Virus record (IMG/VR): IMGVR_UViG_3300020576_003495
Location: 96,001 to 160,000 of that record
Strand: one strand, 5' to 3'
Origin: a virus
Taxonomy: Duplodnaviria > Caudoviricetes
Length of the DNA: 64,000 bases
The notes under the pieces were generated by a model. That model searched no databases and was not told the DNA's origin. It saw nothing but the letters and a program-made list of their open reading frames with translations. A program made the position numbers and the translations under genes. How positions within the stretch are numbered: the stretch's first letter is position 1; each line of letters opens with the position of its first letter. Positions 13,328 through 41,833 of this stretch are shown here, piece by piece.

Positions 13328-13454
13328 GAGCTATGCTTAGCCGTTAGGAAGTTGTATCATGGGGGTAGTTACTCTAAAAGGCATCCCCCATGTACGCACG
13401 CATATTGAAGCGCGAACTGAAGCTAGCCTTCAACCCATATCACGACGACCGACC

Positions 13455-14111
13455 ATGCTAGTTTACCTCATTACTAGCAAAGATACGGGTAGGGTTTATG
13501 TCGGTCAAACAGTACGCCCTTTACACAAAAGAATGTATCGGCATTGGGAGCATGCTAGGCGTGGGCGTATGCACCCTTTATACGCAGCTATTAGAAAGTA
13601 TGGGGAGTCATCTTTTAGCGTGCGTGTTCTGGAAGTTGTTACAACACAGGAAGAGCTAGATTCAGCAGAACGTAAATGGGTGTTGTACTTTAATAGCGTA
13701 CACCCAGAGGGATACAACTTACGTGGTGGGGGAAGAGGGCGTGGAGAAATTAGTAAAGACACGCTACAACGCATGTCCGAATCGCATAAAGGTTTTGTCG
13801 TAAAAGAGGACACAAAAGAAAAAATACGTGCAGCCATGAAAGTCCGTTTCTTTTCTCCTGAGCATAGGGCGAGAATAAGTGCAGCTAAAAAAGGAAAAAA
13901 GGTGCCCTCGATGTTAGGTAAACTAAGCGGAGAAGCCAGTCACTTTTCTAAACATTCTTGGGAAGTCGTTAACGCTGTTAGGCTTGATTATGCTTCGGGC
14001 GGCTATCGCCAATTTGAGTTGTCTAAGAAGTACGGAATTAAAGCGGCAAGTCTATGCATGATTCTCAGTGGTAAGACTTGGAAAACGGAGAACTATCATG
14101 CCCCTATATAG
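13455..14111 (+). CDS. GIY-YIG homing endonuclease with NUMOD3-like repeats
   Basis: LVYLIT...VYVGQT, R...H, GYN, HRARISAAKKGK. Confidence 0.9.
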   Translation: MLVYLITSKDTGRVYVGQTVRPLHKRMYRHWEHARRGRMHPLYAAIRKYGESSFSVRVLEVVTTQEELDSAERKWVLYFNSVHPEGYNLRGGGRGRGEISKDTLQRMSESHKGFVVKEDTKEKIRAAMKVRFFSPEHRARISAAKKGKKVPSMLGKLSGEASHFSKHSWEVVNAVRLDYASGGYRQFELSKKYGIKAASLCMILSGKTWKTENYHAPI

Positions 14112-23868: not shown

Positions 23869-23903
23869 TTGACATTCTTTACAGAGTGCAGTATTCTGTA
23901 ATT

Positions 23904-24308
23904 ATGAAAATATGCACATCCTGCAAGCAAGAGCTTCCTTCGGAAGCGTTTTATAAGAACGCCGTTACGCTGGACGGTCTAGGTTCTCAGTGCAAGCGTT
24001 GCGACGGCGCGGGTAAGCAAGTTAAAGCTAGAGAAAATAAGCGCCGTCTTGTTGATGCTTTTGGCGGTTGTTGTAGCGTCTGCGGATACAGTAAATCCCT
24101 ACAAGTTCTACAGTTTCATCACCACGAGCCTAACAAAGAACGTGGTGTGTCTGATTTACTTAGGAATAAATACGAAGTAGCACTGGCCGAAGCTAAAAAG
24201 TGTATCTTGCTTTGCTCTAACTGTCATTTGGAATTACATGAAAAAGAGAGGCCACCATTAGTATATGGTGCTACTCGTAGGGGTAGGTCTAAAACAGTGG
24301 TATGCTAG
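23904..24308 (+). CDS. HNH endonuclease with N-terminal Zn ribbon
   Basis: CxxC, CSVCGY...LQFHH...KCILLCSNCHLELH; promoter TTGACA-17-TATTCT upstream. Confidence 0.88.
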   Translation: MKICTSCKQELPSEAFYKNAVTLDGLGSQCKRCDGAGKQVKARENKRRLVDAFGGCCSVCGYSKSLQVLQFHHHEPNKERGVSDLLRNKYEVALAEAKKCILLCSNCHLELHEKERPPLVYGATRRGRSKTVVC

Positions 24309-25829: not shown

Positions 25830-25905
25830 GCCCCCTAAGCACATGTGGACGTGTGTCAGTCTCCAAAACTGAAGGTAGGCGGTTCGAGGCCGTCAGGGGG
25901 TGCCA
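25830..25905 (+). tRNA. tRNA-Trp(CCA)
   Basis: TCAGT-CTCCAAA-ACTGA, CCA. Confidence 0.92.
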
Positions 25906-25928
25906 ATGAAAGTAATTGCAAATACCCA

Positions 25929-25957
25929 TTGACAAATCGGGGGAGCTTTTATATAAT
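25929..25957 (+). promoter_or_regulatory. perfect consensus sigma70 promoter
   Basis: TTGACA-17 nt-TATAAT directly before ncRNA copy 1. Confidence 0.9.
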
Positions 25958-25963
25958 TAGTAA

Positions 25964-26316
25964 AACACTGTTAGATGCGTGTTTTTGGAGGTGGGCTTAG
26001 AAGCAGCCATCCTTAATGAGTAGGGCAAGTGCTGTATGCGGATACACATAGGCTGAGAAGGGCATCATTCAGGCCGAAAAGTTCAATAGGGTTTTGTGTG
26101 GATTCTTAGGGAGGCTGGCGTTAGGCCAGATAGCCGAAAGACGAAGCAAAATCACGCCAAGGCAGCTTCGCAAACTGCTGAAGGAATGGGAGTAGCACTC
26201 CCTGAGAACGAATGGGCGTACAGGGCCACACAGCTAGTATCAAGGGGAAGTTGCCGGTAATCCCCACGATCCCTTTTGGCGTGACAGCACACCAAGAATA
26301 CGCATCTAACACTGTT
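25964..26316 (+). ncRNA. 23S rRNA H43/H44 mimic ncRNA, copy 1
   Basis: GGAGGTGGGCTTAGAAGCAGCCATCC ... GCGTGACAGCACAC inside a long terminal helix GTTAGATGCGTGTTTTTGG/CCAAGAATACGCATCTAAC. Confidence 0.85.
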
Positions 26317-26326
26317 GTAAAAAGTT

Positions 26327-26366
26327 TGGCGAGGAGGTTGTTGGTTACCAGACAGGCTCATAACCT
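26327..26366 (+). pseudogene. 5' remnant of a CAT-anticodon tRNA
   Basis: retains D region and AGG-CTCATAA-CCT, lacks T arm and 3' strand. Confidence 0.75.
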
Positions 26367-26405
26367 TTTTCGCTAGTTGTGTTATGATACCCGTGGGGGT
26401 ATGCA

Positions 26406-26858
26406 ATGACACACTTACTATGTTGCAGTTGTAAAGAAAGCAAGCCTTTAGCTAGCTTTTCCAAAGACAAGAGTTCAAAGCGTGGGTACGCTAGTAAATG
26501 TAAAGACTGCCATAATACCTACGTGCGTACTGTGTGGTACCCAAAGAACAAGGATAAGCAGGTAGCGTCTGTTGCTCGTTTTAAAACAGCCAACAGACTG
26601 AAAGAAATCGCTTGGCGGCACGGTGTTCCGTTAGCGGATGTAGAAGAAGCAATAGAGCGCAGTTCTGGGGCTTGTGAAAGCTGCGGTTCCACTGTCTCTG
26701 TTGTGCTAGACCACTGCCACACCACGTCTAAAGTTAGAGGCGTCTTGTGCATGCGTTGTAATACAGTTTTAGGTAGGCTAGGGGATTCTTACGAGAGTGT
26801 TAAACAGCACATGGAGAGTTTGCTGGCCTATTTGGAAAAAAGTTTCGCGGGTGAGTGA
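26406..26858 (+). CDS. endonuclease VII-like homing endonuclease
   Basis: CESCG...LDHCHTT..VRGVLC..CN..LG. Confidence 0.9.
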   Translation: MTHLLCCSCKESKPLASFSKDKSSKRGYASKCKDCHNTYVRTVWYPKNKDKQVASVARFKTANRLKEIAWRHGVPLADVEEAIERSSGACESCGSTVSVVLDHCHTTSKVRGVLCMRCNTVLGRLGDSYESVKQHMESLLAYLEKSFAGE

Positions 26859-26923
26859 AACGTCTTACACAATGGGTTCATATCCCATTAACAGCAGGGT
26901 TAGACTCCCTGTACCCGCAACCA
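26846..26923 (+). tRNA. initiator tRNA-fMet(CAT)
   Basis: C1:A72 mismatch, GGG/CCC anticodon stem, CCA. Confidence 0.9.
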
Positions 26924-26925
26924 GT

Positions 26926-27052
26926 TTCTGTGGCGTAAATAACGATTTCCTCAATGCCAATGAAGTAACGTGGGTTCGAATCCCATCGGCTCGTAAGGGC
27001 TGTCGTCTAGTGGTTAGGACACTAAAAATTTCGTTGTTGCTTGTTCCCAGAA
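26926..27052 (+). ncRNA. YrlA-like Y RNA (permuted tRNA-like domain)
   Basis: T arm, closed acceptor-like stem, then D arm, on a long terminal stem ending CTTGTTCCCAG. Confidence 0.8.
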
Positions 27053-27162
27053 TTAAACAAAGGCCAGAAGCCTAAGTAGTTCCCCGAGCATACGGTAAAC
27101 GTGGGGTTCCCTTGAACAGACTGTTCTTCAACTTCTGTTCGGGGGGATCATGCGACAGTTTT

Positions 27163-27301
27163 ACGGTGTGTGCTTTCGTGCCGGTTCTACTAGAATCAAA
27201 ATTTTATCAAAGCATAGAACCTTGGTGGGGGCTAGGAAAGCCTCAAAATCACTAAAGGTCAGCAGTTGTATTTACAGAATTACGTGGGGGCTTGTTCCTG
27301 T
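27163..27301 (+). ncRNA. Y-RNA-like stem 2
   Basis: GGTGT...CTTGTTCC terminal motif shared with neighbours. Confidence 0.55.
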
Positions 27302-27332
27302 GTTCATAGAAGGATCACCCCAGTAGCAGATT

Positions 27333-27398
27333 TGCGTGGTGTATGGTTACCGTTACTTCTATCTTAGTGAAATCACACGGTTACCGCTTGTTCCCGCA
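27333..27398 (+). ncRNA. Y-RNA-like stem 3
   Basis: GTGGTGTA...TACTTC...GCTTGTTCCC. Confidence 0.65.
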
Positions 27399-27407
27399 TT
27401 TATTTAT

Positions 27408-27484
27408 TGCTTGTTAGCTCAGTCCGGCAGAGCATTGTCTTGATAAGGCACAGGTCGTCGGTTCAAATCCGACACAAGCAACCA
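27408..27484 (+). tRNA. tRNA-Ile(GAT)
   Basis: loop TTGATAA, CCA. Confidence 0.9.
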
Positions 27485-27488
27485 AGTT

Positions 27489-27551
27489 TCGGTGGTGTTG
27501 GTTAGTCGTTCTTCTTTCGGTGAAAAATCCGACTAGCTGTTTGTTCCCCGA
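27489..27551 (+). ncRNA. Y-RNA-like stem 4
   Basis: GTGGTGTT...TTCTTC...TTTGTTCCC. Confidence 0.6.
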
Positions 27552-28983: not shown

Positions 28984-29054
28984 ACCCCGACTGTGGGACA
29001 GATTTTGGCCTTCTAAGCCAAAAATGGGAGGTTCGAAACCTTCTCGGGGTGCCA
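28984..29054 (+). tRNA. tRNA-Arg(TCT), minimal D arm
   Basis: TTGGC-CTTCTAA-GCCAA, CCA. Confidence 0.82.
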
Positions 29055-29751: not shown

Positions 29752-30087
29752 GGTGTTCGTAGAGGGTGGGCTTAGAAGCAGCCATCCCTTAAAGAGTAGG
29801 ACAAGTGCTGTATGCAGGTACACATAGGCAGTTTAAGGGCATAGTTAACTGGCCGAAAAGTTCAATAGGGTTTGTGTGGATTCTTAGAACGGCTTGGGGT
29901 CTGGACTCCAAGTACCAATCGAAAGACGAAGCAAATCACGCCAAGGCAGTCTCGCAAACTGCTGAAGGAATGGGGGTTGCACCCACTGAGAGCGAATGGC
30001 ATACAGAGCCACACGGCAAGTATCAATGGAAGGCAGAGATGCTAAATCCAACGATTCCTTTTAGCGTAGTAGCACACTACGAACACC
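29752..30087 (+). ncRNA. 23S rRNA H43/H44 mimic ncRNA, copy 2
   Basis: AGGGTGGGCTTAGAAGCAGCCATCCCTTAAAGA ... AGCGTAGTAGCACAC closed by GGTGTTCGTAG/CTACGAACACC; colinear with copy 1. Confidence 0.85.
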
Positions 30088-41765: not shown

Positions 41766-41833
41766 GCCCTTGCCAGTGGATAGGGCTTTGGTTTCCGATA
41801 CCGAAGCTGTAGGTTCGATTCCTACCAAGGGCG
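41766..41833 (+). tRNA. tRNA-Arg(CCG), minimal D arm, no encoded CCA
   Basis: TTGGT-TTCCGAT-ACCGA. Confidence 0.8.

Follow-up and report, generated by a model that had tools for sequence, protein, structure and literature searches.

A nuclease-tRNA cassette carrying its own initiator tRNA-Met beside a putative remnant of the resident gene in a phage tRNA array

Free-standing homing endonucleases have been described within phage tRNA clusters, namely SegB in T4 and T6 and F-TflI/II/IV in T5 (PMC2330249; PMC13096335). The gene segB is an open reading frame (ORF) lying between tRNA genes without an intron, and its product is a GIY-YIG enzyme that cuts many tRNA genes. Its target lies within the tRNA genes, where the T-psi-C motif is recognised, the flanking tRNA markers are co-inherited, and a hairpin sequesters the ribosome site of the mRNA. 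Here we analyzed a related arrangement in a stretch of 64,000 nucleotides (hereafter the window), which corresponds to bases 96001-160000 of the 178,170-bp IMG/VR phage record IMGVR_UViG_3300020576_003495 (estimated completeness 91%). The locus consists of a putative 5′ half of an initiator-type tRNA-Met gene, an ORF for an Endonuclease VII-type nuclease and a complete initiator-type tRNA-Met. An earlier note on this DNA had described these parts within 26327-26923, and we confirm all three there (Table 1). As for segB, the nuclease ORF is located between tRNA genes, no intron is involved, and a hairpin is predicted to cover the ribosome site. The two systems differ by the enzyme, which is here of the Endonuclease VII type, and by the target, since the clade of the window enzyme is tied to initiator Met alone. 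Neither the text of PMC13096335 nor the available passages of PMC2330249 mention a remnant or pseudogene of the resident tRNA, or a replacement allele of the same type.

Two other systems share part of this organization. The fungal mitochondrial ORFs called mORFs make gene hybrids in atp6 of Allomyces macrogynus and in atp6, atp9, cox2 and nad3 of Glomus (PMC3630166). Like the cassette, they bring an endonuclease ORF together with a foreign copy of the displaced gene part, so that no splicing is needed, and the native part remains as an unexpressed duplicate. They differ in that their targets are protein genes, the part carried is the 3′ (C-terminal) one, and the enzymes are LAGLIDADG or GIY-YIG proteins; in the phages a 76-nt RNA gene is targeted, and the stump is found on the side of the nuclease, as a 5′ half in the window and as a 3′ end in phage KpS8. 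The niche of I-Ssp6803I is an initiator tRNA gene with the site in the anticodon arm, and this mobile nuclease is encoded by a self-splicing intron (PMC3984707), whereas the window cassette contains no detectable ribozyme. We found no description of a phage tRNA stump combined with a nuclease and a same-type replacement tRNA in the literature searched, the coverage of which was incomplete. With a probability of roughly two in three, we propose that the cassette is a free-standing homing endonuclease gene linked to its own tRNA-fMet allele, which would overwrite resident alleles and leave a stump behind. By analogy, it would be a variant of SegB-type intronless homing and of the fungal gene hybrids. 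The present case adds the Endonuclease VII family, the restriction to initiator tRNA, a junction mapped at 43/44, and a pair of filled and empty sites in cultured phages.

Table 1. Features of the cassette in the window, and configurations of the homologous loci (L numbers and phage names).
Feature	Position or loci	Strand	Basis or remarks
Spacer AAAAAGTTT	26319-26327	+	Identical to 26837-26845, the 9 nt preceding the new tRNA
Putative decayed 5′ half of an initiator-type tRNA-Met, positions 1 to ~43	26328-26368	+	Family alignment, spacer register
Predicted RNA hairpin 1	26328-26374	+	Remnant 5′ strand on AACCTTTTTCGCT, ~14 pairs including 3 G.U
Predicted RNA hairpin 2	26375-26415	+	Buries the GGGGG Shine-Dalgarno sequence and the ATG (26406)
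Extended -10-like promoter element TGT-TATGAT	26380-26388	+	Sequence, position homology
150-aa Endonuclease VII-type (His-Me finger) nuclease ORF	26406-26858	+	PF02945 match, intact active-site residues
Complete initiator-type tRNA-Met(CAT), encoded CCA	26846-26923	+	ARAGORN, Rfam, fold
Configuration A: tRNA-fMet split by the ORF alone	L029, L062		
Configuration A-like: positions 39-48 lost	L028, L067		
Configuration A-like: tRNA 3′ end only, at the stop	APT65		
Configuration B: 5′ half of the old tRNA, then promoter and ORF, the stop being overlapped by a complete Met tRNA	Window, L026, L065/L066		
Configuration C: ORF, then complete Met tRNA overlapping or abutting the stop	L021, L030, L027, L031/L032, L033, L063, L025, L068		
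Configuration D: complete fMet tRNA directly 5′ of the ORF	L022/L024, L069, KpS8, LNA4		
Outside these configurations: CTCATAA relic upstream, no tRNA downstream	L034		

The upstream remnant reads as an acceptor strand (GGCGAGG), followed by AG, a degenerate D arm (GTTG TTGGTTA CCAG), A, and the anticodon arm ACAGG-CTCATAA-CCTTT. It starts in register with the spacer of the array, AGTTT-type spacers being the usual tRNA-tRNA linker there. Because pairing in the D arm is lost and a mismatch is expected at A5, we interpret the element as a decayed half gene. An anticodon-like hairpin was rejected as stand-alone evidence because such structures are frequent by chance (about 5 CAT-type hairpins per strand in this genome under loose criteria). 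Therefore the whole 41-mer was compared with 5′ halves running from position 1 through the anticodon stem; these came from 21 Met tRNAs or tRNA halves located beside homologous nucleases at other loci. The best global alignment score was 39, obtained with the tRNAs of loci L021 and L030; AGGCTCATAACCTT is common to the remnant and to the L021 tRNA, including the 28x42 mismatch. Shuffled remnants scored 16.7 +/- 3.9 and reached 39 in none of 2000 trials, no random 41-mer of the window did so (0/2992), and the best other tRNA of the window scored 25. These values bear on the possibility that the likeness is fortuitous, the locus being an ordinary free-standing nuclease placed between array genes next to a 41-mer not derived from a tRNA. 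The chance frequency of CAT-type hairpins is compatible with this explanation, as is the generic Rfam tRNA model, which did not report 26328-26368. The shuffling results, the start in spacer register and the same layout in L026 and L065 all argue against it, and we consider it highly improbable. The remnant keeps its CAT anticodon loop, as had been noted earlier, but the break does not follow the loop directly: CCTTT, the 3′ strand of the anticodon stem, has been kept, which places the break after the stem, at about 43/44. A search of IMG/VR for an empty site in the window's own lineage, by exact patterns taken from the remnant and from tRNA-Ile, gave no match.

The nuclease ORF matched PF02945 (Endonuclease_7) over residues 70-137 with an E value of 4e-15 and 55.9 bits (cut-off 23.6), and its N-terminal region contains a CxxC...CxxC motif. 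The catalytic residues D102, H103, H105 and N119 and the zinc cysteines C90, C93, C115 and C118 are intact, and are invariant in 10 clade members including the window protein. A profile of these 10 members matched Hpy99I (8e-12) and T4 endonuclease VII (8e-7), and the clade motif LDHCH...RGxLCxxCN (DHxH...N) aligns with LDHDHE...CNLCN of the T4 enzyme. T4 endonuclease VII (gp49; PDB 1en7) and Hpy99I (3fc3) thus share their catalytic fold family and motifs with the window enzyme. The former is a structure-specific junction resolvase and the latter a restriction enzyme, whereas the genomic context of the window enzyme suggests a site-specific homing role rather than junction resolution. I-Ssp6803I belongs to the PD-(D/E)XK family. 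At its C terminus, the conserved part of the window protein ends with ...YL(EK); the terminal SFAGE-stop is read from the spacer and the tRNA and is therefore a product of the junction. The second copy of the spacer (26837-26845) and the first 13 nucleotides of the new tRNA lie within the end of the ORF, the TGA stop (26856-26858) corresponding to tRNA positions 11-13.

The earlier note attributed this nuclease to a family distinct from those of the other cassettes of the array and proposed a convergent origin. The distinction holds at the Pfam level (PF02945 versus PF13392 in the Ala- and Ser-linked ORFs) but not at a higher level, since all are His-Me finger enzymes. Moreover, the Tyr-linked ORF 23886-24308, in which no Pfam match was found, has an N-terminal Cys-rich (CxxC...CxxC) region with weak similarity to that of the Endonuclease VII-type protein (tblastn E 0.029), and a DNA-binding module may be common to the nuclease families. 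A convergent origin of the nuclease cassettes of the window is therefore no more than plausible.

ARAGORN placed the replacement tRNA at 26847-26919; once the encoded ACCA is taken into account, 26846-26923 is preferable and puts C1 opposite A72. The initiator hallmarks announced by the earlier note are present: the C1xA72 mismatch, G2-C71, C3-G70, three G-C pairs (GGG/CCC at 29-31/39-41) and the CAT anticodon. The sequence folds as a cloverleaf, scores 34.7 bits with Rfam, and is the sole initiator-type tRNA of the genome, the two other CAT tRNAs having paired 1:72 ends. Its anticodon arm, ATGGG-TTCATAT-CCCAT, contrasts with the ACAGG-CTCATAA-CCTTT arm of the remnant. Several features are unusual: the TTCATAT loop (U32, U38), a D loop AACGTC without GG, the T loop TTAGACT, and T11:A24 where initiators have A11:U24; the canonical G18G19/C56 elbow is not seen. 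The same GTGAAACG D arm is found again in L026 and in the initiator tRNA resident in Mydovirus phages, so that these oddities are a trait of a phage tRNA lineage rather than signs of decay. Covariation of the 19:56 tertiary pair was considered as a sign that the new tRNA works and was dropped, the L062 tRNA combining a D-loop GG with A56.

A protein search retrieved relatives of the nuclease at 35-51% identity. Clade loci were gathered from the contigs of these relatives and from scans of metagenomes, IMG/VR and GenBank phages, giving 21 distinct loci or locus groups. All 21 lie in phage tRNA arrays and are tied to a tRNA-Met(CAT) sequence, the tie being an intact gene, half or short relic at most about 130 nt upstream, a tRNA that abuts the stop or overlaps it, or the 3′ end of a tRNA at the stop. 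No CAT hairpin was found near the distant IMG/VR relatives (29-37% identity, 16 loci). In a tree with 7 of these 16 distant loci as outgroup, the tRNA-linked clade formed one branch (SH-aLRT 94). The loci are distributed among the configurations listed in Table 1. In the configuration C locus L033, the stop codon is formed by T36-A37-A38 of the anticodon loop. The nuclease-linked tRNA-Met of L063, in the tRNA array of a 97-kb IMG/VR phage, adjoins a tRNA with a CTA anticodon (2021-2094; amber suppressor, "Pyl" in ARAGORN).

The layout of the window recurs in L026 and L065/L066, with a TATG.TATAAT promoter and nucleases 47-51% identical to that of the window. The window nuclease is not sister to theirs in the tree, on which configuration B either arose at least two times or is ancestral. 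The dead 5′ half of L026 (3941-3982) and the live, nuclease-linked tRNA of L065 (507-548) belong to one tRNA type, with a TAGCCAA.TGG.AAGGC D arm, which suggests serial allele replacement.

The point of insertion was deduced from the loci where the ORF splits a tRNA gene. Once joined, the two halves of L029 (188-225 and 697-731) form a cloverleaf recognised by ARAGORN as tRNA-Met; the ORF is therefore inserted exactly between position 43 and the variable loop. The ORF of L062 is likewise found at 43/44. The two inserts are 91% identical. Identity falls to 82% and 71% in the tRNA halves, where compensatory changes affect the anticodon and T stems, and the sequences beyond the tRNA are unrelated. 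The simplest reading of this comparison is that a single insert entered two distinct tRNA-fMet alleles, at an identical position in each. Taken together, the junctions are located at 43/44 in the window, L026, L029 and L062, at 38/39 in L028 and L065, and around position 65 in KpS8. A group I intron or another ribozyme was considered and rejected: the inserts are nearly all coding, their non-coding part being only 12-14 nt in L029 and L062, and there was no Intron_gpI match. More generally, no match to a group I or II intron or ribozyme was obtained in the window region (E up to 10) or in 12 clade loci (E up to 1). Minimum free energy folds of the whole L029 and L062 precursors contained the acceptor and T stems, and neither a bulge-helix-bulge motif nor a terminal stem of the insert.

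Cultured Klebsiella phages of the genus Mydovirus provide both states of one site. The site is empty in Iguana_ER37 and VIK251, where a resident initiator tRNA (type I; annotated Met in Iguana_ER37 and Ala in VIK251 and Mydo) is followed by TCCAAATTCTAATAAC. In KpS8 and Seu621 the site is filled: a different initiator tRNA (type K) is followed 14 nt later by the nuclease ORF. The conserved end of the KpS8 ORF (...SYL) runs into CTCACGCATCCAAATT, which corresponds to the last 12 nt of type I plus the flank; therefore a terminal stump of the resident gene was left on the nuclease side. The downstream flank of KpS8 is 100% identical to that of the nuclease-free phages over 406 nt, whereas the upstream tRNA-Leu and tRNA-Phe are 83-89% identical to those of Iguana and KpS8 has an extra tRNA-Val; this contrast fits co-conversion. 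A third allele is found in BIS47, which has type K without this nuclease. In the KpS8 record (MT178275.1; L073 1405-1481) the type K tRNA is unannotated and lies directly 5′ of a gene annotated 'endonuclease VII', and a complete initiator-type tRNA-Met has the same position in the E. coli phage LNA4 (L074 1405-1481). The filled and empty sites show that the nuclease is present or absent within one genus and arrives with its own initiator tRNA. The order in KpS8 (new tRNA, nuclease, old 3′ end) mirrors that of the window (old 5′ half, nuclease, new tRNA). A nuclease ORF lying, as in the mORFs, between the replacement copy of the target and the displaced native fragment is thus found in the window, L026, L065/L066 and, with a 3′ stump, KpS8. 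L026/L065/L066, L029/L062 and these Klebsiella phages support the core of the earlier proposal, namely breakage of a resident initiator-type tRNA-Met and its functional replacement by a nuclease-tRNA cassette.

Closer to the window, relative L070 shares 82-86% DNA identity, its contig stopping about 100 nt short of the new tRNA, and the L071 contig ends before the array. The neighbouring 166-aa protein has no relatives in IMG/VR. A 60-kb ENA contig (ERZ22665968) has genes for proteins 79% and 98% identical to the flanking 241-aa and 166-aa products, respectively. These genes are separated by 3046 nt, with no called ORF above 62 aa, versus 5103 nt in the window, a difference that fits an array without the three nucleases.

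Folding of the 93 nucleotides from 26328 predicted two hairpins (-35.6 kcal/mol, z -3.8). In the first, AACCTTTTTCGCT, which lies just past the anticodon arm on its 3′ side, is paired with GGCGAGGAGGTTGT, the remnant's 5′ strand. This pairing may be what is left of the old 3′ acceptor strand, it may be a processing signal or otherwise selected RNA hairpin, or it may be fortuitous. The first possibility leads to another explanation of the locus, in which the upstream element is an internally deleted tRNA pseudogene that kept both acceptor strands and lost the variable loop and T arm for reasons independent of the nuclease; the nuclease-tRNA module would have landed or recombined beside it. The pairing, with its three G.U, is as this explanation predicts, and AGTT, the usual post-tRNA spacer, comes directly after. 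However, the 5′ halves of L026, L065 and L028 have no such 3′ partner, and the 43/44 junction is the clean insertion point of L029 and L062. In addition, TCGCT is not followed by a discriminator-CCA although every tRNA of the window array encodes CCA. We therefore hold the pseudogene explanation to be unlikely. The remnant is followed by 13 nt and then by the -10-like element.

The -10-like element is positionally homologous to the TATG(A/C)TATAAT found 3′ of the CTCATAA relic in L026, L065, L068 and L028; a simple sigma-70 scan did not list 26380-26388, which lacks a -35 sequence. It sits in the 5′ arm of hairpin 2, and therefore only transcripts starting within the hairpin would be translatable. 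By analogy with T4, the expression of the nuclease is probably held low. In the read-through RNA the ribosome site would be locked by the hairpin, while the internal extended -10 promoter would yield a translatable RNA; processing of the downstream tRNA by RNase P would strip the stop codon from the nuclease message. PMC2330249 attributes a ribosome-site hairpin with an internal promoter to the intron endonucleases I-TevI, -II and -III and, as a proposal, to MobE of Aeh1; it also contains the proposal that tRNA maturation cuts the segB mRNA between the last sense codon and the stop.

The CTCATAA motif is kept 5′ of the nuclease promoter in 8 loci, even where the rest of the half gene is gone (L068, L025, L034). 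It lies 11-12 nt from the -10-like hexamer in 6 loci and forms part of a TTGACT -35 sequence in L034, L025 and L067. Judging from these sequences, either the cassette carries its left half-site along or the site has a use, for example as an operator. This raises the possibility that the remnant is a functional RNA or DNA element whose tRNA likeness is under selection. It could be an operator half-site for self-repression of the nuclease, as for I-TevI, or a processing signal defining the 3′ end of the 340-nt non-coding RNA (25964-26316) that ends just before it. The persistence and -35 use of CTCATAA, the z score of the hairpin fold and the abutting RNA are in line with such a function. The distance to the hexamer in the window is 19 nt and not 12, however, and the conservation could reflect common descent of the left end of the cassette; a selected element appears to us about as improbable as the pseudogene.

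Returning to the homing cassette, we infer its cleavage specificity, repair route, immunity and regulation as follows. An Endonuclease VII-type gene would travel with its own initiator tRNA-Met allele, a process that may be called split-and-replace. The nuclease would cut the nuclease-free tRNA-fMet gene of related phages near the boundary between anticodon stem and variable loop (~43/44), and the break would be repaired from the cassette-bearing genome. The join on the tRNA side would be homologous; that on the nuclease side would be illegitimate, unless the layout arose when a split allele and a nuclease-tRNA allele recombined inside the ORF. Of the resident gene, only the part up to the break (26328-26368) would be kept, and the linked allele (26846-26923) would supply the function. 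The cassette copy would not be recut, the insertion splitting the old site and the new tRNA differing throughout the anticodon arm.

Several observations weigh against this scenario. The loop changes cannot be the general basis of immunity because several nuclease-linked tRNAs keep the standard CTCATAA. The tRNAs most like the remnant, those of L021 and L030, sit 3′ of the nuclease in their loci, which is compatible with more than one order of events. The cleavage target is deduced from junction positions, and these vary among loci. The 14-bp hairpin of the remnant with the downstream TTTTTCGCT may point to a tRNA with an internal deletion, or to an RNA element under selection, rather than to a plain stump. 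Finally, the four copies from different samples are virtually identical at the cassette and carry no population signal, and for the window's own lineage the empty-site comparison was made on a gene table.

The data also raise a broader possibility, which we put forward as doubtful: pressure from the nuclease may reshape phage initiator tRNAs, the rider tRNA being recoded in and near the anticodon loop (in the window U32 and U38, another stem and an odd elbow) to escape cutting without losing its function, and alleles overwriting one another serially in an ongoing arms race. A non-standard position 32 or 38 occurs in 4 of 12 nuclease-linked downstream tRNAs versus 0 of 14 stumps, split alleles and upstream tRNAs (one-sided exact p ~0.03, calculated by hand on lineages that are not independent), and this so far points weakly to nuclease-driven recoding. 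Serial overwriting is hinted at by the tRNA type that is a dead stump in L026 and the live partner in L065.

The surroundings of the cassette are those of a large tRNA array. The long ORFs of the window are nearly all on the + strand, and the region 23.7-41.8 kb is a tRNA array interspersed with small nuclease ORFs; ARAGORN called 32 genes in the window, including a permuted tmRNA. The same phage recurs almost unchanged in other samples (L018-L020), these three contigs showing 0-1 differing positions across 25901-27500. The ~340-nt RNA upstream of the remnant is preceded by a perfect sigma-70 promoter at 25929-25957 (12/12, TTGACA-17-TATAAT). It is structured, being closed by a long-range helix (about 25968-25982 with 26300-26312), and a second copy is present at 29752-30087; the region 25929-26316 matched no Rfam family. 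Directly 3′ of the new tRNA, 26953-27044 gave a weak match to the Rfam YrlA (Y RNA-like) family, with 27.5 bits versus a gathering score of 69; a T arm and an acceptor-like stem, which is closed, can be recognised in it. At 26960-27000, the sequence resembling a T arm was considered as the old tRNA 3′ half and rejected, since it belongs to this Y-RNA-like element. The clade locus L025 encodes a TROVE (Ro60-like) protein nearby.

Other genes of the window deserve mention. The segment 37692-37852 gave a 161-nt match to the Rfam tRNA model (40.4 bits, model 1-71) with normal acceptor, D arm and T arm and about 90 nt inserted in the anticodon region, so that it is an interrupted tRNA gene missed by ARAGORN. 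Rfam tRNA matches at 28984-29051 and 41766-41833 (30.6 and 32.7 bits) were likewise not called by ARAGORN. The GIY-YIG/NUMOD3 ORF at 13359-14111 has no counterpart in the gene table of the 86%-related phage contig L071, which retains its Zeta-toxin and Acb3 neighbours; by this comparison, it is another nuclease showing presence and absence.

The persistence of homing endonucleases in genes that are essential or useful is ascribed to the shelter of self-splicing introns or inteins. The Endonuclease VII-type clade described here occupies a 76-nt RNA gene without a ribozyme. In L029 and L062 it splits the gene, and in the window, L026, L065 and KpS8 it comes with a substitute allele and a stump remains. 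It offers a mechanism for tRNA gene turnover, duplication and odd sequence in phage arrays, and accounts for initiator tRNAs that are unannotated or misannotated in cultured Klebsiella and E. coli phages. The filled and empty Mydovirus phages, available in culture, provide a tractable test system. For annotation, the finding is a warning that tRNA 'fragments' beside small nucleases may be the footprints of this process.

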